Source: Candidatus Moraniibacteriota bacterium (GTDB lineage: Bacteria; Patescibacteriota; Minisyncoccia; Moranbacterales; JAPLXC01). From it: a DNA stretch of 64,000 bases. The position numbers and the translations under genes were made by a program. The notes under the pieces are model-generated. The model had not been told where the DNA came from. It searched no databases and was given only the letters and a program-made list of their open reading frames with translations. The stretch is taken from the NCBI GenBank assembly GCA_026396275.1, contig JAPLXC010000005.1, forward strand, positions 1,615 to 65,614. Direction: 5' to 3'. Position 1 is the first letter of the stretch, and each line of letters starts with the position of its first letter. This document shows positions 5,120-62,180 of this stretch, piece after piece.

Positions 5120-5138
5120 GCGCTGTTAGCTCAGCTGG
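5120..5138 (+). pseudogene. duplicated 5' fragment (acceptor plus D-arm start, 19 nt) of tRNA-Lys
   Basis: gcgctgttagctcagctgg is identical to 5233..5251, then diverges. No matching 3' acceptor strand. Confidence 0.5.
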
Positions 5139-5189
5139 CCCGCCCGCCATCGCAAGCCTGGCTTGCTCAGGCGTTGCAGGCGGGTAGAA
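5139..5189 (+). repeat. GC-rich hairpin element (CCCGCC...GGCGGGTAG), family member
   Basis: Stem CCCGCC/GGCGGG with a ~30-nt loop. Related to the elements at 8228, 10619 and 34262. Followed by the palindrome AGGGTAAATTTACCCT. Confidence 0.4.
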
Positions 5190-5232
5190 AAGGGTAAATT
5201 TACCCTGAAAGCAATTGCTGAGAAATACAATT

Positions 5233-5305
5233 AAAGAAATGCGCTGTTAGCTCAGCTGGTAGAGCAGCTCCCTTTTAAGGAGACGGTCGGGGGTTCGAAT
5301 CCCTC
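5233..5305 (+). tRNA. tRNA-Lys (anticodon UUU), CCA encoded
   Basis: Cloverleaf: acceptor GCGCTGT/ACAGCGC, D-arm GCTC-AGCTGGTA-GAGC, anticodon loop CTTTTAA, T-loop TTCGAAT, 3' ACCA. Confidence 0.9.
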
Positions 5306-5323
5306 ACAGCGCACCAAAATACT

Positions 5324-6793: not shown

Positions 6794-6835
6794 ACCCCGC
6801 TATATAGTGCGGGGTAAAAGGATAAGTGTCAGAAA

Positions 6836-7303
6836 CTATCGTTTCTGCCATTGCGGGGCGCGTCGGGCTTTTTTCAGTCCTGGCTTTTTGCGTTCCACAA
6901 TCCTCGCATCCCGAGTAAGAAAACCGTTGTCTCTCAAAACTTTTTTTAAGTTCTCATCATAAACCACCAGTGCTCGGGAAATTCCTAGCCGGATTGCTTC
7001 TGATTGTCCCCGAAATCCTCCCCCTCTTACCAGAGCAGACATTCTGAACTTCCCCTGCGTGCCGCTGATCTTAAACGGCGCCAAAACAAGATCCTGAAAA
7101 GACAAGACGGGAAAATAATCTTTCAACTTGCGTTTATTTATGACTAAATCATCTTCCTTAGATTGCACTTTGGAATAAAGTTTTACCTGGGCTACGGATG
7201 TTTTCCTTTTTCCAACCGCATAAAAGTACTTCTCCTTGGGAGCTTCCTTTTTTTCCTCCTTTATAATCTTCTTGTTTTCTTTAACTTTTTTTCTCACTGG
7301 CAT
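6836..7303 (-). CDS. rpsI: 30S ribosomal protein S9 with Lys-rich N-terminal extension
   Basis: C-terminal ...GLKKARRAPQWQKR is an S9 signature. Immediately downstream of rplM. Confidence 0.85.
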   Translation of the reverse strand: MPVRKKVKENKKIIKEEKKEAPKEKYFYAVGKRKTSVAQVKLYSKVQSKEDDLVINKRKLKDYFPVLSFQDLVLAPFKISGTQGKFRMSALVRGGGFRGQSEAIRLGISRALVVYDENLKKVLRDNGFLTRDARIVERKKPGLKKARRAPQWQKR

Positions 7304-7394
7304 ATAGACAGTTTACAAAATTACAAATCTATTGTGAATATTCAAATATATTTTTAAAATTCGTATATTCGTACAGATTCGTAATTCGTAGAGA

Positions 7395-7766
7395 TTAACC
7401 TATTTTGTGCGGATGCTTGTCATCTTTGTATATAAACAGTCTTTTCATCATTAACTTTCGAAGTTTATTTTTCGAAAGCATCCCATATATGGCGTCTTTT
7501 AATACTTTTCTCGAGTCCTTTTTTAGTTGCTCATCTAAAGTAGTTGAAGTTATTCCTCCGGGATAGCCGCTGAAGCGATGATAAATTTTCTTGTGCCGTT
7601 TACTGCCGGTAAAGCCAATTTTGTCCGAATTAATAATCACCACCGCGTCACCTTCATCCCGATGGGGGGCAAAATCCACTTTGTTTTTTCCCCGCAATAT
7701 TACCGCTACCCGGGAAGCTAAGCGTCCTAGGATTTTTCCTTCCGCGTTGAATAAATGATATTTCAT
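7395..7766 (-). CDS. rplM: 50S ribosomal protein L13
   Basis: MKYHLFNAEGKILGRLASRVAVILRGK... matches L13. Confidence 0.9.
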   Translation of the reverse strand: MKYHLFNAEGKILGRLASRVAVILRGKNKVDFAPHRDEGDAVVIINSDKIGFTGSKRHKKIYHRFSGYPGGITSTTLDEQLKKDSRKVLKDAIYGMLSKNKLRKLMMKRLFIYKDDKHPHKIG

Positions 7767-7780
7767 ACAATTATTAGAGA

Positions 7781-8146
7781 TTACACAAACTCTATCACCG
7801 CCATATTAGCGCTATCGCCTCTTCTTCTTCCCAATTTAACCACCCGCACGTAACCGCTTGATCTCTCACTAAATCTATTCAAAAAATCACTAGAGAGTTT
7901 TTTCACTGCCGGCGACGGGATCATATTTTGGAGATCTCTTATAACTTTCACTTTCTTTTTATCATCAACTTTCGCTTGTTTTGCTTTATGAATAATTCTT
8001 TCAACCAATGGCTTCAGTTCTTTGGCCTTGGCTTCGGTGGTGGCAATTTTTTCCCGCATAATCAAACTGGCCAGCAGTGATTTTAAAAGCGACCGGCGCT
8101 GTTTTCTGATCCGACTTAATTTTCTTCCTTTGACTCTGTGTTTCAT
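7781..8146 (-). CDS. rplQ: 50S ribosomal protein L17
   Basis: MKHRVKGRKLSRIRKQRRSLLKSLLASLI... matches L17. Follows rpoA in the alpha operon order. Confidence 0.85.
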   Translation of the reverse strand: MKHRVKGRKLSRIRKQRRSLLKSLLASLIMREKIATTEAKAKELKPLVERIIHKAKQAKVDDKKKVKVIRDLQNMIPSPAVKKLSSDFLNRFSERSSGYVRVVKLGRRRGDSANMAVIEFV

Positions 8147-8227
8147 GCAAATTGTCTACTAATTACGAATCTTGTACTAATGTACGAATTTTGCTTTTTA
8201 TTTTCTGTTATTCGTATATTCGTATGT

Positions 8228-8256
8228 GATTCGCCCGCCTGCCGGCGAGGCAGGTA
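8228..8256. repeat. GC-rich hairpin element CCCGCCTGCC-GGCGA-GGCAGGT
   Basis: A 22-nt core identical to 34262..34283. Stem CCTGCC/GGCAGG. Confidence 0.5.
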
Positions 8257-8281
8257 ATTCTCAGAGTTATTGCGCACAATA

Positions 8282-9274
8282 TTATTCTGATTGTTTTAAT
8301 GTAAGCCCGAACTCTCCGATCGATTTTTTAATTTCTTTAATCCCCTTCTCGCCCATTCCTTCAAGGTTTTTTAAATCCTCTTCCGTCATTTTAATAATAT
8401 TTTTCACCTTGGCGATTTTATTGGTTTCCAGTATGTTTAGTGTCCGGGTGGAAAGTCCTTTCAGTTCGGTAACTTTTATCCTAAGGGGATCATCCGGGAT
8501 GACTTGCTCGCCAGGCACCTCTTCGGTTTTTTCCTTGGCGGAAGAAACAGCTTCCAGCTTCCCAGCTGCCATTTCTGCTTCTTCTGCTGTCTCCACTTCA
8601 AGCAGCAGCGAAAACTGGTCAACCAAAATCTGAACGGCTTTCTGAAAGGCCTCTCGAGGAGTAATGCTTCCATCGGTGACAATCTCCAGCGTGATCTTGT
8701 TATAATCAGTTCTTTTTCCTACCCGCATATTCTCAACCTCGTAATTGACTCTTCTAACCGGTGTGTAGACGGTGTCAATGGCAATGGCGCCAATTTCTTT
8801 TTCTTTTCGCTCCTGCTGTTCAACCGGAACATAACCAATTCCTCCAGCTACTTCTAGTTCCATATCTATTTCTGTCTTTTTGTCGGTGACAGTAGCAATC
8901 AGCTGATCAGTATTAACAACCTCAATACCAGACGGGCATTTAATTTCACCGGCGGTGATTTTTCCTTCTCCTTTATGTTTCAGCACGACCTCCATTGGTT
9001 CATCGCCGTGCATCTTGAATCGAACCTTTTTGATATTAAGAATAATTTGTACCACATCTTCCATTATTCCCGGTATCGTGGAAAACTCGTGTGACACGCC
9101 TTTAATTTTTACCGATGTTACCGCCGCTCCGGAAAGAGATGAAAGCAATACTCTCCTAAGGGCATTCCCCAGCGTTGTTCCGTAGCCCGGATGGCAGTCC
9201 ATAATTTCAAATTTTCCGCTCCGTTCATCTATGGTAGTGTACTTCGGCTTTAGAGGAAGCGATATTGTTAGCAT
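8282..9274 (-). CDS. rpoA: DNA-directed RNA polymerase alpha subunit
   Basis: GTTLGNALRRVLLSS plus dimerisation and C-terminal domains. Start set at internal MLTISLPLKPKY by alignment to RpoA. Confidence 0.9.
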   Translation of the reverse strand: MLTISLPLKPKYTTIDERSGKFEIMDCHPGYGTTLGNALRRVLLSSLSGAAVTSVKIKGVSHEFSTIPGIMEDVVQIILNIKKVRFKMHGDEPMEVVLKHKGEGKITAGEIKCPSGIEVVNTDQLIATVTDKKTEIDMELEVAGGIGYVPVEQQERKEKEIGAIAIDTVYTPVRRVNYEVENMRVGKRTDYNKITLEIVTDGSITPREAFQKAVQILVDQFSLLLEVETAEEAEMAAGKLEAVSSAKEKTEEVPGEQVIPDDPLRIKVTELKGLSTRTLNILETNKIAKVKNIIKMTEEDLKNLEGMGEKGIKEIKKSIGEFGLTLKQSE

Positions 9275-9366
9275 AGTTTTAGCTTTCAGCTTGATTAGTT
9301 TTTTGGCTTTTAGAATTAATATTGATAAATCCCAATAAGCCAGCAAGCTAGTCAAGCTGTTAAAGT

Positions 9367-9999
9367 TTATCTTGAATAATACTCAACAACTAATTGAGGA
9401 TCAATGTTCATTCCCACTTCTTCGCGCTTGGGGATCGCGCTGATTTTTCCTGTCAGGGTGGAAGAATCAAACTGAATCCAGGAAGGAAAGTCCTTCTTAT
9501 TTTTCAAAATTGGAAGCTGCATGATGAAATAGTTTTTATTCTTTTTTGACTCTGAGATTTCTACTTTATCGCCGACTTTAACTTTAAAAGAGGGAATGTT
9601 GACCTTTTTTCCATTTACTAAAAAAGATCCGTGGCGCACTAGTTGGCGCGCGAGCTGCCTAGAACTTGCAAAACCAAGCCGGTAAACTATGTTGTCCAAG
9701 CGCATTTCCAGCCGTTCAAGCAGTAAATCTCCCGTAATCCCGGGTTTATGCTTCACTTCATTAAAGTGCTTCCTGAACTGCCGTTCCATAATGCCATAGA
9801 CCCTTTTAATCTTTTGTTTCATCGCCAACTGCCTTCCATATTCGCTTAATCCCCGCGACTTTTTTTTACCGTGTGCTCCCGGCGGATATGGCTTTCTTAT
9901 CATGGCGCATTTTGGCGAATTGCAGCGATCACCTTTAAGAAAGAGCTTTTCACCGGCTCGGCGGCACATTTTGCATTTGGAATTAAGAATTCTTGCCAT
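9367..9999 (-). CDS. rpsD: 30S ribosomal protein S4
   Basis: MARILNSKCKMCRRAGEKLFLKGDRC zinc-ribbon N-terminus and an S4 domain. Confidence 0.9.
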   Translation of the reverse strand: MARILNSKCKMCRRAGEKLFLKGDRCNSPKCAMIRKPYPPGAHGKKKSRGLSEYGRQLAMKQKIKRVYGIMERQFRKHFNEVKHKPGITGDLLLERLEMRLDNIVYRLGFASSRQLARQLVRHGSFLVNGKKVNIPSFKVKVGDKVEISESKKNKNYFIMQLPILKNKKDFPSWIQFDSSTLTGKISAIPKREEVGMNIDPQLVVEYYSR

Positions 10000-10099
10000 G
10001 ATGCTAATTATGATTCGAATTATATCCGAATTTCAATCCAAATTTTTAATAAAAATCATTCGGATATTTATTCGAATTTAATTCGGATGCTTATTCGAA

Positions 10100-10546
10100 T
10101 TACACCCGGCGCGGTTTCTTGGGCCGACAGCCGTTGTGAGGTATCGGAGTGACATCTTTAATTAAGACCAATTCAAATCCCCTGTTGGCCAAAGCTCGAA
10201 TAGCGGCTTCCCTGCCGCTTCCTACTCCTTTAACATAAACCTCGAGCTCGGAAATCCCGTATTTTTTTACTTTTTCTGTTACATCTCCCGCTACTTGAGT
10301 GGCAGCATAAGGAGTGGCTTTTTTCGCCCCCTTGAAACCCAAAAGACCGGAGCTTGACCAGCCAAGCATCGCGCCATTCAAATCTGTTACTGTTATCAGA
10401 GTATTGTTATAAGTGCACTGAATATAGGCCTTTCCTTTATAAATCTGCTGCCGAATTTTCTTTTTTTTCTTTTTCGGCAGTTCTTGAACGTCGGAGGTCT
10501 CACTCTTTTCTTCCTTATCTTTTCTAACTATATCTTTCCCAGCCAT
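10100..10546 (-). CDS. rpsK: 30S ribosomal protein S11
   Basis: C-terminal ...ALANRGFELVLIKDVTPIPHNGCRPKKPRRV. Confidence 0.9.
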   Translation of the reverse strand: MAGKDIVRKDKEEKSETSDVQELPKKKKKKIRQQIYKGKAYIQCTYNNTLITVTDLNGAMLGWSSSGLLGFKGAKKATPYAATQVAGDVTEKVKKYGISELEVYVKGVGSGREAAIRALANRGFELVLIKDVTPIPHNGCRPKKPRRV

Positions 10547-10618
10547 AAAGTTTCACTAATCACAAATTAAACACTTATGAGCAAATTAAAATTATTTATT
10601 CATACATTCGTACAAAAT

Positions 10619-10668
10619 TCGCCCGTCTGCCTCGATGGTCATCAAGGCATTTCGGGCAGGTATTTCGT
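10619..10668. repeat. GC-rich hairpin element, long-loop variant (CGCCCGTCTGCC...GGGCAGGTA)
   Basis: Flanks match the element at 8228; the loop differs. Confidence 0.4.
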
Positions 10669-10674
10669 AGAGAT

Positions 10675-11064
10675 TTACGTTTTTTCCGCCGCCGACTTGC
10701 GTCCGCTTCCCATAGTCCGTCGGACATTGCCTCTCACTGTTCGGCTGTTTGTCTTTGTCCGCTGGCCCCTGATCGGCAGTCCTTTCTGGTGTCGGCTTCC
10801 CCGGTAACAGCCGATTTCCTTGAGGCGCTTGATGTTCATTCTTACTTCATGCTTTAACTCCCCTTCTATCTTATACTTCTTTTCTATTTCTTCCCTAAGC
10901 TGATTGGCTTGCTCCGCCGTCAAGTCCTTCGCCCGGGTATTACGCGGGATGCTAAGATGATCCAAAATTTTCCCACTGGTAGAATGCCCTATACCAAAAA
11001 TATAGGTTAGCGCTATTTCTATTCTTTTTTCGTCCGGAAGGTTAACTCCCGCAATTCTTACCAT
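10675..11064 (-). CDS. rpsM: 30S ribosomal protein S13
   Basis: MVRIAGVNLPDEKRIEIALTYIFGIG... Confidence 0.9.
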   Translation of the reverse strand: MVRIAGVNLPDEKRIEIALTYIFGIGHSTSGKILDHLSIPRNTRAKDLTAEQANQLREEIEKKYKIEGELKHEVRMNIKRLKEIGCYRGSRHQKGLPIRGQRTKTNSRTVRGNVRRTMGSGRKSAAEKT

Positions 11065-11147
11065 GATACGAATTGTAATACGAATTATATTCGAATTATG
11101 GTCCGAATTCGTTTTTCATTCGGATTTAATTCGGATAATAATTCGTA

Positions 11148-11261
11148 TCACCCTTGGCGCTGCTTATGCTTGGGATTAGAACAAATCACGTAAATTTTTC
11201 CTTTACGCTTGACAATTTTGCATTTGGCGCAAAATCTTTTAACTGATGCCCTTACTTTCAT
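11148..11261 (-). CDS. rpmJ: 50S ribosomal protein L36
   Basis: Own translation gives [37 protein letters not shown] (37 aa). Absent from the track because it is under 60 aa. Confidence 0.85.
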
Positions 11262-11395
11262 AAAGTTAGCTACTAAATACTAATCTTTTACGAATATACC
11301 AATAAGTTTAGATTTTTTCCAAAAAATTCGTATATTAGTATGTGATTCACCACCGCCCTGGCGGGGTCCCGCTACAGCGGGATAATTAGTAGATA

Positions 11396-11611
11396 TTATA
11401 ATCTCTTTACTATTCTTCCTTTCGTCAAATCATAGGGACTTAGCTCCAGCAGAACCCGATCGCCGGGAAGAAGGCGTATATAATTCACCCTCATTCTTCC
11501 TGAAATGTGAGCCATCACCTCATGCCCGTTTTCCAGCTGAACCTTAAAGGTCGTACTAGGGAGGGTCTCAATAATTGTTCCCTCAAGCTTGATTAATTCT
11601 TTGTCCGCCAT
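11396..11611 (-). CDS. infA: translation initiation factor IF-1
   Basis: 71-aa S1-like fold, ...[16 protein letters not shown]... Confidence 0.9.
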
Positions 11612-11849
11612 AGATACTAATTATGATCCGAATTACATTCGAATTATTATCCGAATTCGTATTTCATTTGGATTTAATTCGTATTATCAATTCGGATCAA
11701 TACAAAAATAGAGGAGCTTTTATCCTGCCAACATTGCTCGCCAGATGACGAGAGACAGGAATGTAAGCGTTTCTATCCTAATTCCTGAAGTCCTACAATT
11801 TGCCACCTCTATTTTCCGCGCCTTATTTAGTTTTTCAAATGTCGTGTTT

Positions 11850-16186: not shown

Positions 16187-16382
16187 TCAAAATGTCAATG
16201 CAAAATGTAAAAATGGTTTTATTCTTTTTGATTTTTAATTTATCATTTTGCCTGCCCGAAATGCCCTCTATATTAAACTGACCAGTTTTGTTTGATTTCA
16301 TAAGAACGCAATTTTTCTAAATTATTTAAAGATTTCAAGGCAGGCGGGCATTTTGATTTTTGCATTTTGATTTCTTATGTTT
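16187..16382. repeat. AT-rich element bounded by inverted repeats CAAAAATCAAAATG(C/T)AAAA (family 2)
   Basis: Inverted 25-30-nt arms at 16187..16235 and 16335..16382. Homologous arms occur at 59779..59925 and 23470..23556. Confidence 0.45.
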
Positions 16383-19791: not shown

Positions 19792-19873
19792 GTCTATACC
19801 AAGTATATACCAAATTTATTTTAACAGCATCCGGATTGTAATTCGGATATAATTCGGATTTAAATTCGTATCA

Positions 19874-20971
19874 TTACCCCATTCCCAAAATTCCGATCAT
19901 CACACCAATAAGCGCCGTGACGGCGGTGAAAACCCAAGCCCGCATAGTTACTTTCGGCTCCGGCCAGCCCTTGGCCTCAAAATGATGATGGATTGGCGCT
20001 GCCAGAAATATCTTCCGACCCAGGAAACGTTTACTTAAAAGTTGAAGTGCCGCGCTTCCCGATTCTAAAACATACAAAAATACAATGATGAATAAAATGA
20101 TTGCTGAATTAGTAAGCATAGCCACTACTCCAAGGGTTATTCCCAGAGAAACCGCTCCAGTATCCCCCATAAAAAATCGCGCCGGATAGATATTGAACCA
20201 CAAAAAAGCCAGAAGCGCTCCGGCTAGCGCTGCGCAAAACGCCGCCAGATCCACCTTATTGTGAAGGAAGGCGATAAGTCCAAATGAAGAAAAGGCCATA
20301 AGGAGCACCCCGCCGTTAAGGCCGTCCAGCCCGTCCGTCTCATTGGAGGAAATAGCGGTAAAAATAATGACAAACATAAAAAGCGGAATATACCACCAGC
20401 CGATCGAAAAGTCGCCGACGGCCGGAATGTGAATCCGGTCCCAACCGAGTTTCCAAAAAAACCACCAGGCGCCTACTCCGGCAATAGTCAACAGCCACCA
20501 GAAGCGTGCGATAAACCGTATCCCTCCCCCCTTATTTTTCCCGCAACCGCGGACGCTCATAATGTCATCAAAAAGACCCAGCACGCCCGCCGCAACTAAG
20601 GCGAATAAAGGAAGCCATACCTGCTTTCGGCTTAAAAAATCAAGCCGGGCAATGAAATTAATGTTTAACCATTTGGCAATGATAGGAAAAAGATAATGGG
20701 AGGAAAAAACAAGAATAAGAACAGAAATCCAGACCAGCACTCCGCCCATCGTCGGAGTACCGGCTTTTCTGGCATGAAGCTTGCTCACAAAAGTAAGTTT
20801 TTCTCCGTCCACTGACTGATCTTTTATTTTAATTCCGATCCGGTACTTATACAGGATTTTTGTCCACAGCGGAGTAATTAAAAACGCCAGCAAAAATGCC
20901 AGTAGTCCCGTGACTAGCACCTTGATTATGTCAACCACTACTGGGATAGTTTGAATTTGCGCAAGTTGCAT
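19874..20971 (-). CDS. mraY: phospho-N-acetylmuramoyl-pentapeptide transferase
   Basis: Polytopic membrane protein with GT4 MraY/WecA motifs. Confidence 0.85.
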   Translation of the reverse strand: MQLAQIQTIPVVVDIIKVLVTGLLAFLLAFLITPLWTKILYKYRIGIKIKDQSVDGEKLTFVSKLHARKAGTPTMGGVLVWISVLILVFSSHYLFPIIAKWLNINFIARLDFLSRKQVWLPLFALVAAGVLGLFDDIMSVRGCGKNKGGGIRFIARFWWLLTIAGVGAWWFFWKLGWDRIHIPAVGDFSIGWWYIPLFMFVIIFTAISSNETDGLDGLNGGVLLMAFSSFGLIAFLHNKVDLAAFCAALAGALLAFLWFNIYPARFFMGDTGAVSLGITLGVVAMLTNSAIILFIIVFLYVLESGSAALQLLSKRFLGRKIFLAAPIHHHFEAKGWPEPKVTMRAWVFTAVTALIGVMIGILGMG

Positions 20972-21055
20972 ATCCGAATTTTAATCCTAATTATATCCGA
21001 ATAATAATCCGAATTCACATAACAATTCGGATATAATTTGGATTTTAATTCGCAT

Positions 21056-22069
21056 CTACCGCCATTCATAGGAACGCCACGCCCAGTCAACCATTGTCTT
21101 AATATCCTGCCAGCGATAAGGATCATCAAGCACTACTGCCACAATTTTGTGTTTTTTAGAAGGATCGGTTGAAGCCAGAAGCAACGAGTGGCCAGCCAGT
21201 GGAGTAAAGCCGGTTTTTCCTCCCAGGCAATTAGGTACCTGATCGAGCACCAGATCGGTATTCAAGATAGTGTGGGAATATTTACCGTCGGCGGATGTAA
21301 CAATGGTATTGGTGGGAAGCCGGAAAATATGCCAGATAAGATCGTATTTCATTGAGTAGGCGGCGATTCTGGCAACATCGTAGGCGGAAGAATGGCATTC
21401 TGATTCCCGGCCGTCTATTTCCAGTCCCGAAGGCGTGCAAAATCGGGAGTCCCCTAGTCCAAGCTCACGCGCTTTTTCGTTCATAAGTTTGGCAAATTCT
21501 TCCTGGGAGCCGCTGATATGTTTTCCTAAAGCTATAGCCGCGTCATTGGCACTGTTCATAAGCATCGCTTTTAAAAGACCAGACACGGTGATTTTTTCCC
21601 CTGCTTTAAGCCGCTGGCTGATGCAATAACCCGAACGGGGACAGCCGATTTTCGTTCCCTCGGCATAAACCGCTTCTTCATCCACTGTCACTTCTTCATT
21701 AAGATTGGAAATTCTTTCCATCACAATTACGGCGGTCATCAATTTTACCAGAGAAGCAATGGGGCGGTGCTCCCGTCCATTTTGATAGTGAAGGATAGTT
21801 CCTGATTCAACGTCTAAAATAAGAGAAGAGTGGGCATTGGGGATAGCCAGGTCCGTTGCCGCCTCTTTTTTTGTCGGTAAAACAGCAGGCGGAAGAGGAT
21901 TTTTTTTGGGGAAAAGCCCTTCCTGGGATTTTTCCGCTCCCTGAATTTCTTTGGCATAATTTTCCAAAATATTTTTTTTATTCTGACCATCGCTAATCCA
22001 CGGCGTCGTAATCCAAAAAAAATTCAGCGGGAAAATGATAATTGTGACTAGGGTAATAATACTGCTCAT
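21056..22069 (-). CDS. D-alanyl-D-alanine carboxypeptidase (peptidase S11, PBP5-like)
   Basis: SLVKLMT (SxxK), SAND and KTG-like motifs. Confidence 0.8.
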   Translation of the reverse strand: MSSIITLVTIIIFPLNFFWITTPWISDGQNKKNILENYAKEIQGAEKSQEGLFPKKNPLPPAVLPTKKEAATDLAIPNAHSSLILDVESGTILHYQNGREHRPIASLVKLMTAVIVMERISNLNEEVTVDEEAVYAEGTKIGCPRSGYCISQRLKAGEKITVSGLLKAMLMNSANDAAIALGKHISGSQEEFAKLMNEKARELGLGDSRFCTPSGLEIDGRESECHSSAYDVARIAAYSMKYDLIWHIFRLPTNTIVTSADGKYSHTILNTDLVLDQVPNCLGGKTGFTPLAGHSLLLASTDPSKKHKIVAVVLDDPYRWQDIKTMVDWAWRSYEWR

Positions 22070-33070: not shown

Positions 33071-33637
33071 CTAACTTGCGAGCAACGCCGCGGGATTGAA
33101 GTCGCTCCAGTCGTCGTCAAGCCAGCGGCCGTGCCAGTGCCACCTGCCGCCGTGCCAGTCGAGGTAACGGACGCTGAGGTAGCCAGTGGAGTCGCGATAA
33201 ATCGTTCCCCAAAAAAACACGTATTTGTCTTTCCATTCCTCAGGAATAAGGTGTGGATTGGCAAGTAGATAATCAAGGACGTTGGCGTTGAGAACTGGCA
33301 TTTTTTCCAATTCCTTGTGCAGTATGTTTCCCTCGATCACTTTTCTATCCCTTTGCTTCTTAGAAAGATAAAGTGAGATTTCTGTCGGATCCCACTTTAA
33401 CTGCCTGCCCTTTTTGTGCCTAATCACATTCCATCCGCTTGGGACGAAGGGATCCGCATCACAGTTGATTACATGGTCGATAAGCTTAATTTCTGCATAA
33501 CCAAGTATTACCTGACGAACTTGAGCAAGGATATCGCCCTCACTTAATTTTTTTATCTCTGCATTTGTCCAATCTCCGCGCCGAAACGCGGCTTTTAACT
33601 CCCCAGCCTGGTCAACATCGAGCATTATTTCGCTCAT
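33071..33637 (-). CDS. hypothetical protein with His/Trp-rich GC-rich C-terminal tail
   Basis: 188-aa ORF. The last ~40 codons (...WHGGRWHWHGRWLDDDWSDFNPAALLAS) are about 60% GC, against ~38% locally. Confidence 0.5.
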   Translation of the reverse strand: MSEIMLDVDQAGELKAAFRRGDWTNAEIKKLSEGDILAQVRQVILGYAEIKLIDHVINCDADPFVPSGWNVIRHKKGRQLKWDPTEISLYLSKKQRDRKVIEGNILHKELEKMPVLNANVLDYLLANPHLIPEEWKDKYVFFWGTIYRDSTGYLSVRYLDWHGGRWHWHGRWLDDDWSDFNPAALLAS

Positions 33638-34002: not shown

Positions 34003-35280
34003 CTACTTTTTACTCTTTATAAGCTCTACTAATTTTTGAATATCGAAAAGTGTCGGTTTATTTTCATTTCTCTTCTTCACTTCCACTCCCCCGGCTTTCA
34101 ATGATTTTTCACTTACCACAACACGATATGGAATACCGATAAGATCCGCGTCGGCAAATTTCTCCCCGGCGCTCGCTTCACGATCGTCATGCAGCACTTC
34201 AATTCCATTGTCCTGCAATAATTTATATATTTTATCAACCTCTTCATCAATTTTGATTTTTGACCCGCCTGCCGGCGAGGCAGGTTTTTGATTTTTGATT
34301 TTGAGCAGGTGCACCTGGTAAGGTGCAACTGCGATTGGCCAGATGATTCCTTTTTCGTCATGATGAAGCTCAACAATCGTTCCCATAAGGCGATTAAGGC
34401 CGATGCCATAACAACCCATGGTAATTAATTTGTCTTTTCCGACTTTGTCTTTGACAGTCAAATTAAACGGCTTGGTAAATTTATCCCGAATCTTGAAAAT
34501 ATTCCCGACTTCAATTGCTTTTTCAGTTCTGAACTTATCAGTGCCGCACTGGGGGCATTGGGGCGTTTCATGTTTAATTTCTTTGTTAATCGCCACCTTG
34601 CATTTATCGCAGATATATATGGTATCTTCGCCGGCTTCGGAGAGGGTCTGAAATTCATGGGAATATTTGGAAAAAGTGCCGCCGGTGGCAAAAGTAAGGT
34701 GGGTTTTTCCGCCAATGCCTGCTTTATTAAAGATGTTAAAGTAACTTTTCTTTACTTTTTCGTAGTAATTATTAAGATCATCCTCATTAAGATGAAAAGA
34801 ATAGAGATCTTTCATTAAAAATTCCCTTCCCCGCAGCAGCCCGGACTTTGGCCGCAGCTCCATCCGGAATTTGTTCTGAATCTGATAAGCGTAAAAAGGG
34901 ATATCTTTGTAGGAATGGATGTATTTTTGAACAAGGGGAACAATCACCTCCTCATGAGTTGGCCCCAGGGCGAATTCACGCCCGCCCGAATCCTTGACTT
35001 TATACAAATCATCCATCGTGTTCCAACGTCCGGTTTTTTCCCAATTTTCCTTAGGCTGAAGCGCCGGCATAAAAATTTCCTGCCCGCCGACAGCGTTTAT
35101 TTCTTCCCGGATTATATTCTCTATCTTTTTCATTACCCGGAGCCCTAGTGGAAGAAAAGAATAAACCCCGGCCATTAATTTCTCCACAAAACCGGCTCGA
35201 ATTAGAAGCTGGGCATTGGCGCTCGTCTCGTCCTTCGGTGCCTCTTTTTGGGTTTTAGTGAAAAGCTTGGACTGCAACAT
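34003..35280 (-). CDS. proS: prolyl-tRNA synthetase (no editing domain; Zn-ribbon insertion)
   Basis: Class II motifs and an anticodon-binding domain. CDKC...CPQCG ribbon. Confidence 0.9.
   Translation of the reverse strand: MLQSKLFTKTQKEAPKDETSANAQLLIRAGFVEKLMAGVYSFLPLGLRVMKKIENIIREEINAVGGQEIFMPALQPKENWEKTGRWNTMDDLYKVKDSGGREFALGPTHEEVIVPLVQKYIHSYKDIPFYAYQIQNKFRMELRPKSGLLRGREFLMKDLYSFHLNEDDLNNYYEKVKKSYFNIFNKAGIGGKTHLTFATGGTFSKYSHEFQTLSEAGEDTIYICDKCKVAINKEIKHETPQCPQCGTDKFRTEKAIEVGNIFKIRDKFTKPFNLTVKDKVGKDKLITMGCYGIGLNRLMGTIVELHHDEKGIIWPIAVAPYQVHLLKIKNQKPASPAGGSKIKIDEEVDKIYKLLQDNGIEVLHDDREASAGEKFADADLIGIPYRVVVSEKSLKAGGVEVKKRNENKPTLFDIQKLVELIKSKK
34262..34306. repeat. GC-hairpin plus TTTTGATTTTTGATTTTG element embedded in-frame in proS
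   Basis: Identical 22-nt core to 8228..8256. Read on the minus strand it encodes ...KIKNQKPASPAGGSK... inside ProS. Confidence 0.5.
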
Positions 35281-35774: not shown

Positions 35775-35882
35775 ATTCTTGTTTACGAATTACTAATTCC
35801 ATACGAATATACGAATATACGAATTACTTTTTGAATATTAGTATATTCGTAAAAGCGAAGCGCATTAGTAATTAGTAAATAC

Positions 35883-40934: not shown

Positions 40935-40971
40935 TAATCTAGTCACTTTATAATAACCAAAATAAAAGTCA

Positions 40972-41000
40972 TATTACACTATCTGTCGGCCGACATAAGG
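40972..41000. promoter_or_regulatory. 28-bp palindromic operator-like site ACAC-N5-GTCGGCCGAC-N5-GTGT (copy 1)
   Basis: Imperfect palindrome. Two related copies sit upstream of the wHTH gene. Confidence 0.45.
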
Positions 41001-41052
41001 TGTCAAAAGATATTAAATATGCAAATCCATAACTTCCGAATTTATGTTCTGT

Positions 41053-41634
41053 TTAGATAATATTTTTATAAACTTTTTCTACAAGCAAATAATTGACATA
41101 ATTTCCTATTTTTCTTCTTTTTATTTCTTTTATCAAGTCCTCTGTTAAAGAATGCTTGCTTATAAAAACGCTCTCCTGTAATTTTCTGTAGTTTAGAAGA
41201 TATAATTCTTGCCTTAACCAGTTGCGTATTTTTCTTTTATCTTCAGGAATATCAAAAATGACTACTCTGAACTTATTGTCCCATTTTTTATCTAGGGTCT
41301 TTTTTCGATTTAAAACATATTTGGCCAGTATTTTCCCCATTTTTGTTAACACATACTTGTTCCCCCTTTTTTCCACGAAGCCCTGTTTTTGTAATCTTCG
41401 AATGCTCTGTCTTATTGTATTCTCTTTAAAACTGGTCTTTTTTGAAGAGGGTCCTGGCCAATCAAATGATGAGGCGGGAAGATCCGCATAAATTGATGGC
41501 GATAAGAAAGCATTAATAGTTAATTCTCCCATTTGGATTAAGGCAACAAATACCCAGGCCGAAGCATTGAGGGAATTTCTCACAACATTCCTGGTTATAG
41601 CTCTTACCAGTTTCAAGTTTTTCTTCTTTGTCAT
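41053..41634 (-). CDS. winged-helix DNA-binding protein fused to a Cas2-like (VapD/Cas2 fold) C-terminal domain; putative regulator
   Basis: N-terminal wHTH-like (...IRRLQKQGFVEKRGNKYVLTKMG...). C-terminal FRVVIFDIPEDKRKIRNWLRQELYLLNYRKLQESVF...GNYVNYLLVE follows the Cas2 pattern (YDV...RRR...YGxRVQxSVFE...R.YLL). Confidence 0.5.
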   Translation of the reverse strand: MTKKKNLKLVRAITRNVVRNSLNASAWVFVALIQMGELTINAFLSPSIYADLPASSFDWPGPSSKKTSFKENTIRQSIRRLQKQGFVEKRGNKYVLTKMGKILAKYVLNRKKTLDKKWDNKFRVVIFDIPEDKRKIRNWLRQELYLLNYRKLQESVFISKHSLTEDLIKEIKRRKIGNYVNYLLVEKVYKNII

Positions 41635-41679
41635 ATAACCATCTTTTAAAATTAATTCTATATTCCCGCTAGCTATATT

Positions 41680-41708
41680 ACACTATCTCACGGCCGGAGT
41701 AAAGTGTC
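41680..41708. promoter_or_regulatory. 28-bp palindromic operator-like site (copy 2), overlaps the putative promoter of 41053..41634
   Basis: ACACTATCTCACGGCCGGAGTAAAGTGT. On the minus strand a TAATAT -10-like hexamer follows directly. Confidence 0.45.
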
Positions 41709-41754
41709 ATATGACACACTATTTTAGTATTGCTTGTTAAATTAATATTAATTA

Positions 41755-41783
41755 TGTTACATAATCTGGCGGCCGGCGTCAAG
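41755..41783. promoter_or_regulatory. 28-bp palindromic operator-like site (copy 3)
   Basis: ACATAATCTGGCGGCCGGCGTCAAGTGT. Confidence 0.4.
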
Positions 41784-41831
41784 TGTAGTATAATTTATAC
41801 TCTATTATTTCTGAACGCTATTTTGGAAAAT

Positions 41832-56571: not shown

Positions 56572-56786
56572 GACTAAACTCACAATCTTGGCGACGGCCT
56601 ACTCTCCCCCCACACCAATTTCAACTACAGACCGCAATAATATTTCGCGTGCAAGTGAAGCGACTTCGCTTTCACAACTAAAATACCATAGCGACGTACC
56701 AAAAATTGGTGTGGGGGTACCATCGGGGCTGAAGTGCTTAACGGCCGAGTTCGGAATGGGATCGGGTGTACCCACTTCGCAAAAAT
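56572..56786 (-). rRNA. 5S rRNA with ~87-nt insertion in the helix IV terminal loop
   Basis: Aligned by eye to E. coli 5S. A 13-bp helix I (CAAUCUUGGUGAU / GUCGCCAAGAUUG), loop C CCGAACUC, ...CCGAUGGUA, then extended helix IV CCCCCACACCAA...UUGGUGUGGGGG enclosing ~87 nt, then GAGAGUAGG. Confidence 0.7.
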
Positions 56787-56982
56787 CACCAAGATTGTAA
56801 GTTCAGATCAAAATTTGAACTTCAAATTTATTTTAAGTAACTGCTAACTGCTAACTTGAAAAACGAGAAAGGTTTAATAGTTTATTAGTACTTCTTGGCT
56901 GAATCCCTCTCGGGACTTACACCTGAAGCCTATCAACCTCGTCTTCTTCGAGGAAACCATACCGCGCACAGCGCGGAAGTTC

Positions 56983-57273: not shown

Positions 57274-58042
57274 CACATATTCCCTTATTTCTAAGAGTGT
57301 AGACTATATCTTCATCCCCGATGGACATCGAGGAGCCGACGTGTTATAGCAACACATTTCCATATATTTTCCGTTGCTATCCTATCCCGCCTTGGCGGGA
57401 TAAAGTCGTTACGGGGTCAATCCTAAAATTTTTAGCAATTTTCTTTTGGTTCTTTTTTTCTTAGTAACATAATTTTCTTTCTGAATTTTCATCACGCAAT
57501 TAATAAGTTTAATGTAATCCTTCTTTTCAAGGTTCTTTTTACTAAGAATTTTTATAGCTTTTAATATTTCTTGGCACTGGATCTTTTTGAATTTAATAAA
57601 TGGCTTTAGTTTTTCGAGAATACTTTTTGCCTTATTATAGCCATTAATTCGTAGTTCGGTTATGCTATCATTTCTTCTGGAAATATAACCAATGCCGATT
57701 TTTTTCCTAATCCAGTACAAGGGTTTTTCGTGGCGCGAATCCTGATAAAAGCAAATAGTAACCATGAAGCGGCTTTTTCCATTGTCGCTTCGTTTTTTTA
57801 TTTGCAACATTAAGCTTCCATCGCCATCAAGAAAACCTGCAATATAAGCTAAATTAATTTTAGAACGACTTCCCACGGTATTATCTTAATTATTTATCCG
57901 GTCCTCAAGTAACTTTATCATATCACAAAATTCGCTGGACCGCAAATCATTTTGTGATCCCACAAACCGGAAAATAAATGAAGACTTCACCGTTATTAGT
58001 CGGATTTTCAATTCCGCTTGCGCGGAAAAGTAGCAATCTTCT
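57274..58042 (-). mobile_element. group-I-like intron in 23S rRNA at the sarcin-ricin loop (between E. coli U2656/A2657 equivalents), encodes a LAGLIDADG endonuclease
   Basis: Exon junction reconstructs CUCUAGU|ACGAGAGGACC. 5' exon ends in U and the intron ends in G. Shares blocks (AUCCGACUAAUAACGGUGAAG, AUACCGUGGGAAGUC) with the intron at 59118..59358. Confidence 0.7.
57409..57876 (-). CDS. LAGLIDADG-family homing endonuclease (intron-encoded)
   Basis: LAYIAGFLDGDGS motif near the N-terminus. 155 aa, single-motif type, inside intron A. Confidence 0.8.
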   Translation of the reverse strand: MGSRSKINLAYIAGFLDGDGSLMLQIKKRSDNGKSRFMVTICFYQDSRHEKPLYWIRKKIGIGYISRRNDSITELRINGYNKAKSILEKLKPFIKFKKIQCQEILKAIKILSKKNLEKKDYIKLINCVMKIQKENYVTKKKRTKRKLLKILGLTP

Positions 58043-58105: not shown

Positions 58106-58389
58106 CATATTTGTTCACTTATTACTAAGTGTATGGACTATAACTTAATCCTTTTTTATTTTGTACAAAATTAGGATTGCTAACATTTAGTCTCTACGGG
58201 TTTGTAATTATTTACAATTCCCTCGGTATTGTCCAAACATATTTTGGATTTTACCGAAATTAGTTAGCTTCTCTTTTAACATTACTGTTAAAAGCCGCCA
58301 TGAATGATGTCATTAAATATCCTCGGGTTCAAACAGTAAAATCTCCTTTAACTAAAAAGCTAATGAAGCTAATAGCTAAAAGCTGCTTT
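58106..58389 (-). mobile_element. group-I-like intron in 23S rRNA at the I-CreI-type site (E. coli ~2593; AACCGU|CGUGAGACAG)
   Basis: A 284-nt insertion in the invariant GUCGUGAGACAG segment. Intron ends in G. No ORF. Confidence 0.65.
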
Positions 58390-58453
58390 ACGGTTTGAAC
58401 CCAGCTCGCGTACCGCTTTAATTGGCGAACAGCCAAACCCTTGGGAGCTTCTC

Positions 58454-58493
<40 letters not shown>

Positions 58494-58720
58494 TCCTCCG
58501 TCGATATGGACTCTTGGGAGGAATAAGCCTGTTATCCCCGGGGTAACTTTTATCTGATGATCTTCCACCCTCCTATGAGGGATGGTCGGTTCACTAAATT
58601 CCACTTTCGTGACTGATTGACTTATGGGTCTTTCAGTAAAGCTGGCTTGTGCTTTTGCGCTACCGGCCCGATTTCCATCCGGACCTAGCCAACCTTAGTA
58701 AACGCCTCCGTTGCATTTTG

Positions 58721-58751
<31 letters not shown>

Positions 58752-59117
58752 AGGCACTGTTCCCAACCCGGTACCAATAACCAACAACTTACAACTCACA
58801 ACTAAAATAACATTAAAAGAAATGTTATCAGTTGTTTGTTATCAGTTAGTCATTAGTAACGGGTTAGGGTTAGAACTAAAACTTCAGCAGGGTGGTATTC
58901 CACTGTTGCCTCCATCCCGACCAGAATCGGGACTTCATCGGCTCCCACCTAAGCTCGGCAGCTAAAACTCTAATCCAATGCCAAGTTGTAGTAAAGCTCC
59001 ACGGGGTCTTTTCGTCTTGCCGTAGGTCGACGGCATCTTTACCGTCATTGCGATTTCACCGGGTCCTTCGTCGAGACAGTTACCAAGTCGTTACGCCTTT
59101 GATGCGGGTCAGAATTT

Positions 59118-59358
59118 CATTTTTGCTGTTTTGCTTTCGCAAACAATAGACTATATCTTCACCCCGATATTATATCGGGGGCCGACGTGTTACCCACAAT
59201 AATTGTGAGTCCAGATTAAATAAATAATCTGAGTCGTTACGGGGTCACTAGGACTTCCCACGGTATTACCATATCCTTCAAGGACTTAGGCTTCACCGTT
59301 ATTAGTCGGATTGCTCATGCCGCATTGCTGCGGCATTCAGGCAAATGTCTGACACTTT
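59118..59358 (-). mobile_element. group-I-like intron in 23S rRNA near E. coli position 1951 (CCUUGUCAGGU|AAAUUCUGACC)
   Basis: A 241-nt insertion. 5' exon ends in U and the intron ends in G. Homologous to intron A. No ORF. Confidence 0.65.
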
Positions 59359-59778
59359 ACCTGACAAGGAATTTCGCTACCTTAGGACGATTATAGTTAT
59401 CGCCGACGTTCACTGGCGCTTCGGGAACAAGCTTTCACCCGCTCCGTTAACGTTCCAGCACTGGTCAGGCGTCAGCCCCTATACTTCCCCTTGCGGGTTT
59501 GCAGAGACCTGTGTTTTTGGTAAACAGTCGCCTGGTAAACTTTCGCTGCGTCCCGCCCTTTTGGACTAAAATTTTAAGGCTTCATGAATTTTATTTTCAC
59601 AAGCTTAAAATTCATTCCCAAAAGGGCGGGAAAGACATTTCGCGAACTTACGTCTAGTTTTTTTGCCGAGTTCCTTAACGAAGGTTCTCCCGTTCACCTT
59701 GGGCTACTCGCCCAGTCCACCTGTGTCGGTTTTCGGTACGGACGCTGTTAGATTCGCTCGTATCGCGCTTCGCGCGAT

Positions 59779-59925
59779 ACATCGCTAAATTCAAAAATCA
59801 AAGTGCAAAATGCAAAATTAAGGAACTCGCTACACTCGTAATTTTTTATATTTTAAATATAAAATAATCAGTCGCGAAACGACACCAAAATTTTGATTTT
59901 TGATTTTTGCATTTTGAATTTGAGT
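59779..59925. repeat. AT-rich family-2 inverted-repeat element inside a 23S variable region (domain III)
   Basis: Arms CAAAAATCAAAGTGCAAAATGCAAAA / TTTTGATTTTTGATTTTTGCATTTTG, like 16187..16382. Confidence 0.45.
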
Positions 59926-61085
59926 GAGTATCACACGAAAGGTGATACGAACGACATAGAGGTTTTTCCTGGTAGCGCGCTCGTTCAGCTTCCCCTGATA
60001 AAATCAGAGTTCGCCGCGTTTCTTGAAGTAATGCCCTGCGGATTTGCCTGCAGAGCCCTCTTAAAACGCGGACGTTAATCCAATAAATCGCCTGAATTAC
60101 TGCACTACGTCACCTCATTTATAAACTAATAGCGGTGCCGGAATATTAACCGGCTGTCCATCGACTACGCCTTTCGGCCTCGCCTTAGGACCGACTAACC
60201 CTGGGATGATCGTCATTGCCCAGGAAACCTTGGACTTGCGGTGTGCCGGGTTTTCACCGGCATTGTGGTTACTCATGCCAACATTCTCACTTCCATAAAC
60301 TCCAGTCCGACTCACATCGAACCTTTGCTGCTTATGGAACGCTCTCCTACCGCCAATGCAAAGCATTGGCCCATATCTTCGGTACCATGTTTAGCCCCGT
60401 TACATTTTCGGCGCGAATCTTCTGGTCTAGTGAGCTGTTACGCACTCTTTAAAGGGTGGCTGCCTCTAAGCCAACCTCCTAGATGTATAAGAAAATTCAC
60501 TTCCTTTCCCACTTAACATGGATTTAGGGACCTTAGATGATGATTTGGGCTGTTTCCCTTTTGAGATCCGACCTTAGCGCCGGATTTCTGACTGCCTCGG
60601 TAAATATCGCAAGAATTCGGAGTTTGGTTGAGAACCCTGCGGCGAACCGCGAGTCCTCATTCAGTAGCTCTACCTCTTGGATACAATGTCGAGACGCTAG
60701 CCCTCAAGCTATTTCGGAGAGAACCAGCTATTGCCAAGCTCGGTTGGAATTTCTCCTCTACACACAAGTCATCTCCCAGTTTTGCACGGCTGGTGAGTGC
60801 GGGCCTCCCCCCGATTTTACTCGGGGTTCACCCTGCTCATGTGTAGCTCGCCTGGCTTCGGGTCTAGTCCGCGCGACACGCCTTGTACCACAATGGTACA
60901 AGGCAAAGCCCATTTAAGGCTCGCTTTCACTGTGCATATCCTCCAAAGGAGTTTATACAAGTCACGCAAAACTAACTCGTTGGCTCGTTCTACAAAAAGC
61001 ACGCAGTCACCCCGACTTGCGTCGGGGCTCCTACTCTTCGTTTGCATATGGTTTCAGGTTCTATTTCATCTCCCTCACCGGGATA

Positions 61086-61122
<37 letters not shown>

Positions 61123-62180
61123 ATCTCGCACAATATTTAGCCTTGGAAGATTAGTGCTCCCAGATTCAGACGGGATTTCTCCGGTCCCGCCCTACTTGAG
61201 AATAATAACCGTAAAGATGTTTTCTTTTTATGTACAGGGCTATTACCTTCTATGGCCGCTCTTTCCAGAGACGTTCTATTAAAAAAACATTTTATAACTC
61301 TACCTCCGCAGAATGTAACACGTTGAGAAAAATCTCAAGATGTTACAAACTCGGAGCGTTACCATCCCGCAACGCCGCAATCACCAAAGTAATTACGGTT
61401 TTGGCTTTTCCCCTTTCGCTCGCCACTACTTGGGGAATCACTATTGTTTTCTTTTCCTCCTGGTACTAAGATGTTTCAATTCCCAGGGTGCGCCATACGC
61501 ACCTATGAATTCAGCGCGTATTAATCCCGCCGAGGCGGGATTGGATTGCTCCATTCGGATATCCCCGGATCAAAGCTTGCTTGGCAGCTCCCCGAGGCTT
61601 ATCGCAGCCTGCTACGTCCTTCATCGCTTGTACGAGTCAAGGCATCCACCATATGCATGAGTAAACCTTTCTCTTTGTTAGCAGTTAGCAATTACTTAAC
61701 TTTAGCTAACTTTTTCTTAATTTACGACCTACTTAAAACTTACCACTTTTCACTGACTCATCTTTCCGCAAAACGCGAACAAGCCAATGACAGTTGGTTA
61801 AGACCTATTCAGTTTTCAAGGAGCGATTACTGCGGAAATAAATTAGAACAATATTATTCAAACTTATTTCAACACTAATCATCAACCTGTCACCCACTCA
61901 CCAGTTTCGAAAGCATTCTGGTGATTTCCTAAAACTGGATACACAGTCGCGCCTTCGGCTTGATCTGAAAAAATATTAAATATTGATAAAAACTGGTGAG
62001 GGATTTGTTTCTCTTATCAAAATCAAAGATTTTGAAGAGAAACAAAAAACCGCTTGTTCGGCGGGCTGTCTCCTCAAGAACAACTTAAAAATAAAGAATT
62101 TACCCGCTTCTTTTTCCAATATGCTTTTTTCGAATTGTCTTTACTATATGTTTGAAAAAATAATTAGTTAGTCAGTTTTC

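Follow-up and report, generated by a model that had tools for sequence, protein, structure and literature searches.

The small dispersed repeats (SDRs) of Nostocaceae were reportedly described by Elhai et al. in 2008 (Genome Res 18:1484) as units of 21–27 nt with hairpin potential, which are said to show nesting and to insert into heptameric tandem repeats and hairpins. Three of them, SDR4, SDR5 and SDR6, are cited in PMC5861425, PMC4390886 and PMC3116915; one of them, SDR5, has its precise insertion point within HIP1, itself a short motif (PMC4390886), and SDRs are reported as absent outside Nostocaceae (PMC5861425). The repetitive extragenic palindromes (REPs), with the REPINs and the RAYT proteins (PMC3733652, PMC2817692, PMC3116915), bear a conserved GTAG (or CGTC) tetranucleotide at one end, and some of them lie inside open reading frames (ORFs), where they occupy loops or linkers, UvrABCD and other repair genes being notable hosts (PMC3733652). 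According to PMC10969869 and PMC3733652, the Rickettsia palindromic elements (RPEs; Ogata et al. 2000) are palindromes of ~100–150 bp with a conserved peptide of ~30–50 residues, occur in Rickettsia only, and are inserted in frame in unrelated housekeeping genes in a way compatible with fold and function. [quoted passage not shown] Here we describe a 21-nt GC-rich hairpin that interrupts proS, the prolyl-tRNA synthetase (ProRS) gene, in a stretch of 64,000 nt from a Candidatus Moraniibacteriota genome (contig JAPLXC010000005.1; the whole stretch is called the window below). We consider it likely that this hairpin is a copy of a tiny non-autonomous dispersed repeat that was inserted into a pre-existing (AAAAATC)n tract.

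A sequence-only reading of the window had pointed to a 22-nt string shared by the rplQ–rpoA spacer and proS, and the match proved exact: CCCGCCTGCCGGCGAGGCAGGT (+ strand) occurs at 8234–8255 and at 34264–34285. Shuffled sequences gave no match to this string even with 3 mismatches allowed, and the chance expectation in the window was 0. The unit common to both copies is 21 nt long, the 22nd base (T) belonging to the flank, and the G+C content of the window is ~42% rather than the ~38% that had been assumed for the genome. Folded as single-stranded DNA, the 21-mer pairs CCTGCC with GGCAGG in a 6-bp GC stem closed by a loop of 5 nt, and the last four bases, CGGG, remain as a tail. It makes up exactly 7 codons and is free of stops in all six frames, which read PASPAGG, xLPRRQAG, xCLAGRRx, PACRRGR, xRLPARQx, and xPPAGEAG. 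On the coding strand of proS its codons are CCT GCC TCG CCG GCA GGC GGG, that is, PASPAGG at P333–G339 in the context ...VHLLKIKNQK-PASPAGG-SKIKIDEE.... The ProRS of the window, for which 8000 homologues were found, is identical to a protein annotated in a Candidatus Moranbacteria metagenome-assembled genome (MAG).

PASPAGG was found in none of the 119 ProRS orthologues aligned (65–79% identity to the window protein), and none of them carried the segment without the DNA repeat. Most orthologues are 407–409 aa long and read ...HLLSLGK-N-EE-AEKIY at the position of the insert, while a subclade reads HLLKIKNQK-SKIKIDEE. The DNA of the site was compared with three members of this subclade (L001, L243, and L244; L numbers denote loci of other genomes), all of which carry an unbroken tract, CAAAATCAAAAATCAAAAA followed directly by TCAAAAATCAAAATT, with the codons CTC AAA ATC AAA AAT CAA AAA/TCA AAA ATC AAA ATT GAT. 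At the slash the window has exactly 21 extra bases, inserted cleanly between A and T without target-site duplication. Since the three relatives keep the heptamer tract uninterrupted, the window gene has received a clean 21-nt insertion, in line with the earlier suggestion of a miniature palindromic element that entered a coding region without breaking the frame. The element and the adjacent T-rich tract TTTTTGATTTTTGATTTTG had been taken together as the extra in-frame segment; the 21-mer is indeed in frame, but the tract belongs to the host array, because the relatives carry it without the hairpin. It is the upstream half of this array that provides the T-run 3′ of the hairpin on the + strand. 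The comparison shows that the (AAAAATC)n array was already in frame in the ancestor and served as the insertion target.

The heptamer array itself (34246–34303) looks like an older in-frame addition: the 14 residues KIKNQKSKIKIDEE stand in place of the 7 residues SLGKNEE, so that three heptamers (21 nt) were gained; the orthologues concerned are P0006, P0008, P0010, P0022, P0024, and P0070. The DNA of the array is identical between L001 and L243 despite differing flanking codons. In P0043, a ProRS of another lineage (448 aa), a 22-residue insert lies at the same point and begins with PARNA. Compared at the protein level, back-translation of these residues gives CCTGCCCGAAATGCC, with which the longer relatives of the element in the window start at their 5′ end.

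In an AlphaFold2 (AF2) model of the window ProRS, built from 48 sequences and having a mean predicted local distance difference test score (pLDDT) of 81.7, the anticodon-binding domain contains a strand at 323–327 (VHLLK), a loop at 328–343, and a helix at 344–357. Residues 333–338 (PASPAG) were the sole segment of this domain with pLDDT <50, and the alignment with the Pseudomonas ProRS (5ucm) showed a 9-residue gap opposite KPASPAGGS. The model thus places the insert in a predicted disordered extension of the surface loop between the first strand and the first helix of the anticodon-binding domain, as the surface-loop-like segment proposed from the letters had implied. Because the ORF is intact, the modified ProRS presumably stays functional. 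The insertion is apparently tolerated since it comprises 7 codons, has no stop in any of the six frames, and is read in the mildest frame, PASPAGG, which lengthens a disordered loop; we take it for a tolerated event, whether selfish or neutral, rather than for an adaptation.

The suggested search for further copies also came out in favor of the insertion. A search for exact matches, with each GTDB species represented by one genome, detected the 21-mer in at least 120 stretches from more than 100 other genomes, where ~0.27 would be expected by chance overall, perhaps a few in very GC-rich genomes. Among the matches listed, 129 exact copies were counted, and their flanks were unrelated. The record titles of these matches name Saccharibacteria, Moranbacteria, Gottesmanbacteria, and other Patescibacteria, Bacteroidota, Omnitrophota, Acidobacteriota, Gammaproteobacteria, Elusimicrobia, Planctomycetia, Nitrospirae, Armatimonadota, a Bathyarchaeote, and others, and no cyanobacterium is named in them. 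The carriers listed include cultured Bacteroidota, namely Aureibaculum sp., Agriterribacter humi, Namhaeicola litoreus, and Lutimonas vermicola. Because several genomes contributed several contigs, the element appears to be multi-copy where it is present, and insertions at orthologous sites are common to different species in three cases (L050/L097, L004/L062, and L076/L101). A phage was rejected as the vector, as the 21-mer occurred in only 1 of the 2.9 million contigs of a viral collection, while a BLAST search for a plasmid vector with the 42-nt dimer gave only partial matches, in GC-rich replicons. When metagenomes were scanned with the loop left free (CCTGCC-N5-GGCAGGCGGG), 71 of the 133 matches had the loop CGTCC (52) or TCGCC (19), and CGACC, CGTTC, CGCTC, TGTCC, and CTGCC were found a few times each; the remaining singleton loops, mostly in GC-rich contigs, were read as chance matches. 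According to these counts, the proS element (loop TCGCC) is the second commonest member of the family. Neither the sequence, nor its peptides PASPAGG and PPAGEAG, nor the concept led to a paper describing the 21-mer or its family when the literature was searched.

Many of the copies lie within genes. Considering contigs of <50% G+C and ORFs open for at least 60 codons on both sides of the element, 58 of 154 copies (~38%) were inside long ORFs. In this set, 37 of the 58 were read in the PASPAGG/PARPAGG or the PPAGEAG frame, where one third would be expected (p = 2e-6; chi-square over the six frames, p = 5e-5). The exact 21-mers in ORFs among the matches listed gave the same picture, 42 of 58 lying in the PASPAGG or PPAGEAG frame against the expected one third (p ~1e-9). 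This bias speaks for translation of the insert and for its filtering by selection, as far as can be judged from sequence. The host genes include those of UvrB, Era, RsmA, UvrA, topoisomerase I (TopA), two Cu-ATPases, and a second, unrelated ProRS. In the latter (L218, 6424–8151; 575 aa, with an editing domain), the element is of the CGTCC variant and lies at another position, its reading near residue 270 being RLPDGQ. At L227, two adjacent YkuD-type paralogues (5216–7630) both contain the 21-mer, read as PPAGEAG, at homologous positions, thus the insertion there is older than the gene duplication.

The choice of target was evaluated at 213 sites by cutting out the element, joining the flanks, and setting the result against 7155 positions drawn at random from the same loci. 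Period-7 tandem arrays were present at 8.0% of the sites and at 0.3% of the random positions (odds ratio ~29). For junctions situated in a flanking hairpin's loop, counting stems of 6 bp or more, the figures were 8.9% and 1.4% (odds ratio ~7). The array units CAAAGTC, TTTCCAA, TCACCAA, TACGAAT, and AAAAATC were interrupted at unit boundaries, and at L035, L042, L051, L056, and L068 the elements were nested in, or adjoined, the loop of other family members. The base 3′ of the element was C or T in 89% of the sites. Two other repeats also host the 21-mer in their loops: gtcattgcgag...cccgcgc..tggcggaga/cgcggcaatc..., shared by L005, L091, and L121 and present also at L146, and an Acidobacteriota repeat, CCCGGCAC...GTGCCGGG (L032, L043, L104, L107, and L110).

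Besides the proS element, the window holds one identical copy and two to three related elements, all of them in spacers (Table 1). The identical copy lies between rpoA (8282–9355) and rplQ (7781–8146; Pfam). Of the two diverged copies that the sequence-only reading had proposed, the one at 10619..10668 corresponds to the 39-nt relative (10622–10660), which shares the element ends CCTGCCCGAAATGCC...GGCAGACGGG (with the CCTGCC start), whereas the other, at 5139..5189, has only its 3′ end, GCAGGCGGG, in common with the element, and its kinship to the family is weak. In this case, the first 19 nt of a tRNA-Lys gene (5241–5316) are duplicated at 5121–5139, and after the 46-nt hairpin the tRNA sequence resumes for 4 nt (TAGA). 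The 98-nt relative, which was absent from that earlier list, is flanked by TTTTGAT-type arrays. The corresponding ribosomal-operon spacers of two relatives (L246 and L247) show the same inverted TACGAAT array architecture without the GC hairpin. All three well-defined insertions of the window, that of proS included, are therefore in short tandem arrays, as the 8234 and 10622 elements sit at TA/CGAAT and the proS copy in the heptamer tract.

Table 1. Coordinates of the proS element, its host array, and related elements in the window (a slash marks the point of insertion; TRF, Tandem Repeats Finder)
Feature	Position	Strand	Basis or remark
21-nt hairpin element CCTGCCTCGCCGGCAGGCGGG (coding strand)	34264..34284	-	Exact repeat; site empty in L001, L243, L244
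proS, prolyl-tRNA synthetase, short bacterial type without INS editing domain; 425 aa, intact	34003..35280	-	ORF, homologues, PDB ProRS matches
Downstream half (gene orientation) of host heptamer array, TCAAAAATCAAAATTGAT (coding strand), encodes SKIKID	34246..34263	-	Relatives unbroken CAAAATCAAAAATCAAAAATCAAAAATCAAAATTGAT; TRF period 7
Upstream half of host heptamer array, CAAAATCAAAAATCAAAAA (coding strand), encodes KIKNQK	34285..34303	-	Relatives; TRF
Identical 21-nt copy, rpoA-rplQ spacer, inserted at TA/CGAAT of TACGAAT array	8234..8254	-	Exact repeat; Pfam neighbours; L246/L247 array without hairpin
39-nt relative CCTGCCCGAAATGCCTTGATGACCATCGAGGCAGACGGG, rpsM-rpsK spacer, at TA/CGAAT	10622..10660	-	Fold, Pfam, relatives
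98-nt relative, same ends (CCTGCCCGAAATGCC...GGCAGGCGGG), AT-rich interior	16251..16348	+	Between enolase and PfkB-kinase genes
46-nt GC hairpin ending GCAGGCGGG	5139..5184	+	Interrupts duplicated tRNA-Lys 5′ piece in D-loop

The spacers at 7300–11700, 19830–21060, and 35780–35880, above all those of the rpsM-rpsK-rpsD-rpoA-rplQ operon, contain inverted arrays of 7–12-nt units (TACGAAT, ATTCGGAT), and the same spacer architecture with diverged units was seen at L246 and L247 at ~73% RpoA identity. Element lengths of 21, 35 (L001, 21053–21087), and 98 nt can be divided by 7, which is also the repeat length of the arrays preferred as targets, while 39 and 46 nt cannot; the coincidence may be due to chance. 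A ribozyme, hammerhead or other, was considered for the 39-nt relative (GAAA ... UGAUGA) and rejected owing to the plain hairpin fold of this relative and the lack of an Rfam match. Rfam 15 gave no match at any of the elements, its matches elsewhere in the window being only rRNA, tRNA, and group I introns.

Judged by description only, the nearest behavioral match to the 21-mer appears to be the SDRs, which are likewise very small, dispersed, and apparently mobile; the 21-mer has 21 nt and empty sites at proS and at two spacers. Its occurrence in period-7 arrays, in hairpin loops, and as nested copies resembles the insertion rules reported for SDRs. It differs from them in being identical across many non-cyanobacterial phyla and often intragenic, whereas SDRs are reported to be restricted to Nostocaceae. 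In 50 kb of the Nostoc punctiforme plasmid pNPUN01, heptamer arrays were present, but neither a copy of the 21-mer nor a dispersed short repeat was found. With REPs the 21-mer shares a short GC-rich imperfect palindrome, the length of which falls within the 20–40 nt of the REP stem-loop, a 4-nt tag beside the stem, a high copy number, a mostly intergenic location, and host genes such as UvrA, UvrB, and TopA. However, the 21-mer ends with CCTG.../...CGGG (tag CGGG/CCCG) and not with GTAG/CGTC, the CGTC of its commonest variant being in the loop, and no cognate RAYT was found in the window ORFs, in 1.75 Mb of element-bearing loci, or in the neighbor clusters. It is mostly single (the window copies are singletons, and inverted pairs are rare, as at L033), while REPs are often inverted doublets; more than a third of its copies in the set of <50% G+C lie in long ORFs, while REPs are extragenic; and it is identical across phyla, while REP families are specific to a species or genus. 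The in-frame insertion is reminiscent of RPEs, but the 21-mer has 21 nt (7 residues) and occurs in many phyla. It resembles MITEs in being non-autonomous and dispersed, with terminal inverted symmetry and occasional in-frame fusion, and differs in being a single 21-nt hairpin without duplication. The mobile GC clusters of yeast mitochondria are also short GC-rich hairpins in AT-rich DNA and are occasionally found in frame (var1). They are organellar, fungal, and different in sequence, and no relation to the 21-mer is implied.

The empty sites, the family, the target preference, and the frame bias show that the 21-nt hairpin unit is copied into new sites without target duplication, preferably into DNA able to slip or extrude, such as the unit boundaries of period-7 arrays and hairpin loops, its own included, and that within genes it persists mainly in the two frames that encode flexible Pro/Ala/Gly-rich peptides. 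How the unit moves is deduced from these features. Our best guess is a trans-acting enzyme that would recognize the folded hairpin and its 4-nt tail on single-stranded or extruded DNA and, like the HUH/Y1 transposases of the IS200/IS605–RAYT type, would paste it where DNA easily turns single-stranded, as in slipped arrays and hairpin loops. By analogy, the HUH/Y1 enzymes (IS200/IS605 TnpA, RAYT) are the most likely class because of the 4-nt tag beside a GC hairpin, the lack of duplication, and the probably single-stranded targets.

Several observations weigh against this explanation. No Y1/HUH domain was detected among the 20 ORFs of the window, and tblastn of 1.75 Mb of element-bearing loci with approximate IS200 TnpA and RAYT sequences as queries gave one RAYT-like gene flanked by a different REP of its own, thus neither search provided a RAYT/IS200 mobilizer. 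This gene lies at L227 (4221–4991) with its REP, CCCTCACTTCCGATGTGAGGGTAAAATGGTTA, on both sides. The all-against-all clustering of 1167 ORFs within 2.5 kb of ~240 sites yielded only housekeeping families, by which a recurrent neighboring gene was rejected. Compared with the local GC skew and with the strand of the gene, the orientation of the element was not clearly biased (42:58; the 6-kb skew is a noisy proxy), which counts against the proposal since a mechanism using lagging-strand single-stranded DNA would predict a bias. The 21-mer is identical across phyla, unlike ordinary REP/RAYT pairs. Finally, the function of the ProRS, the translation of the insert, and current mobility are read from DNA sequence, and the proS insertion is known from a MAG assembly.

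Identical bases in many phyla and the tight association with period-7 arrays would also be expected if an enzyme carrying its own template, such as a telomerase-like reverse transcriptase with a built-in RNA template, wrote the copies, and the 7-nt arrays as well, at breaks or stalled forks. The element length of 3 × 7 nt, the relatives of 35 and 98 nt, and the absence of target duplication, of a transposase found nearby, and of strand bias would agree with this, yet we regard it as unlikely, since no such enzyme or RNA was seen, the hairpin is constant while the heptamer units vary between loci and genomes, and two of the relatives have lengths, 39 and 46 nt, that 7 does not divide. The loop variants (CGTCC, TCGCC, and others) and the longer relatives fit the copying of diverging DNA at least equally well. 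Alternatively, the hairpin could spread inside a genome with no dedicated enzyme, if scattered arrays built of one short unit recombined or underwent gene conversion with one another, the proS copy being a conversion product. The arrays around the copies could provide the flanking homology, and the TA/CGAAT junction is common to two window elements and the L109 copy of another Parcubacterium. The flanks of the two identical copies are different, though (AAAAATC at proS and TACGAAT at 8234), no homologous donor was seen in the window, the 16251 element points the other way with respect to its TTTTGAT array, the majority of the sites in other genomes are outside arrays, and conversion leaves the presence across phyla unexplained, all of which make this route quite improbable.

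A role at the level of nucleic acid, either as an antisense terminator or as an mRNA structure tuning the translation or decay of ProRS, was considered because the + strand hairpin at 34267–34285 followed by TTTTTGATTTT scores like an intrinsic terminator antisense to proS, and because the two spacer copies are placed among ribosomal-protein and rpoA genes, a setting in which hairpins for processing or attenuation would be plausible. The terminator match was found on the + strand only, antisense and internal to proS, the T-run is older than the insertion, the relatives lack the hairpin at all three sites, the same element occurs at unrelated places of unrelated genes, and the 8234 copy has no T-run on either strand. 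As the frame bias moreover indicates selection on the peptide and not an RNA role, there is little to recommend such a function, and the antisense terminator-like site at proS is regarded as a by-product of insertion beside a pre-existing T-run. Least probable of all is an artefact of sequencing or assembly, by which a foreign oligonucleotide or a chimeric read would have entered the contigs. Many matches are MAGs, some with very low coverage (cov 1.1–3 in the record names), and the window is known from assembly alone; but the matches come from many projects, from short-read and long-read assemblies and cultured isolates, insertions are kept at orthologous sites in different species, and an artefact would favor neither two of six frames nor period-7 arrays. 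The insertion of a dispersed hairpin repeat into the heptamer tract of proS is therefore the explanation that we prefer.

Some other features of the window were noted. A 188-aa ORF (33071–33637) that separates proS from ispH lacks a Pfam match, and L001, L243, and L244 do not have it at this place. The 23S rRNA gene (58333–61672, − strand) has two group I introns (58115–58316 and 59128–59368), and a LAGLIDADG endonuclease ORF (57409–57876) and the 5S rRNA gene (56686–56793) were also found. The 40-nt motif ATATTACACTATCTGTCGGCCGACATAAGGTGTCAAAAGA occurs three times in 40971–41793, around an ORF with a PaaX/Cas2-like domain (41053–41634), possibly as operator sites.

Taken alone, the proS locus adds one more case to a known kind of event, for which the Rickettsia RPEs and the intragenic REPs are precedents. 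What stands out is the scale, namely that one exact 21-mer occurs in more than 100 species-representative genomes from many phyla, with ~40% of the copies intragenic, and the family, defined by one 21-mer in many phyla with frame-filtered occupancy of essential genes and heptamer arrays and hairpin loops as targets, appears to be undescribed. We tentatively propose that CCTGCC-N5-GGCAGGCGGG may represent an undescribed family of 21-nt mobile DNA, among the smallest known, with a shared mechanism that targets heptamer arrays and hairpin loops and a build suited for harmless colonization of essential genes, and that it is perhaps the general case of the cyanobacterial SDRs and short tandemly repeated repetitive (STRR) arrays. 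In practice, the insertions represent lineage-specific 7-residue indels in marker proteins, which matter for phylogeny and annotation. If the family is indeed mobile and undescribed, the known size limit for widespread mobile DNA would drop, its insertions would form a natural catalogue of permissive loop insertion sites in aminoacyl-tRNA synthetases, UvrA/B, Era, and TopA, and the heptamer tandem arrays and the very small dispersed repeats would be tied to a testable common mechanism.

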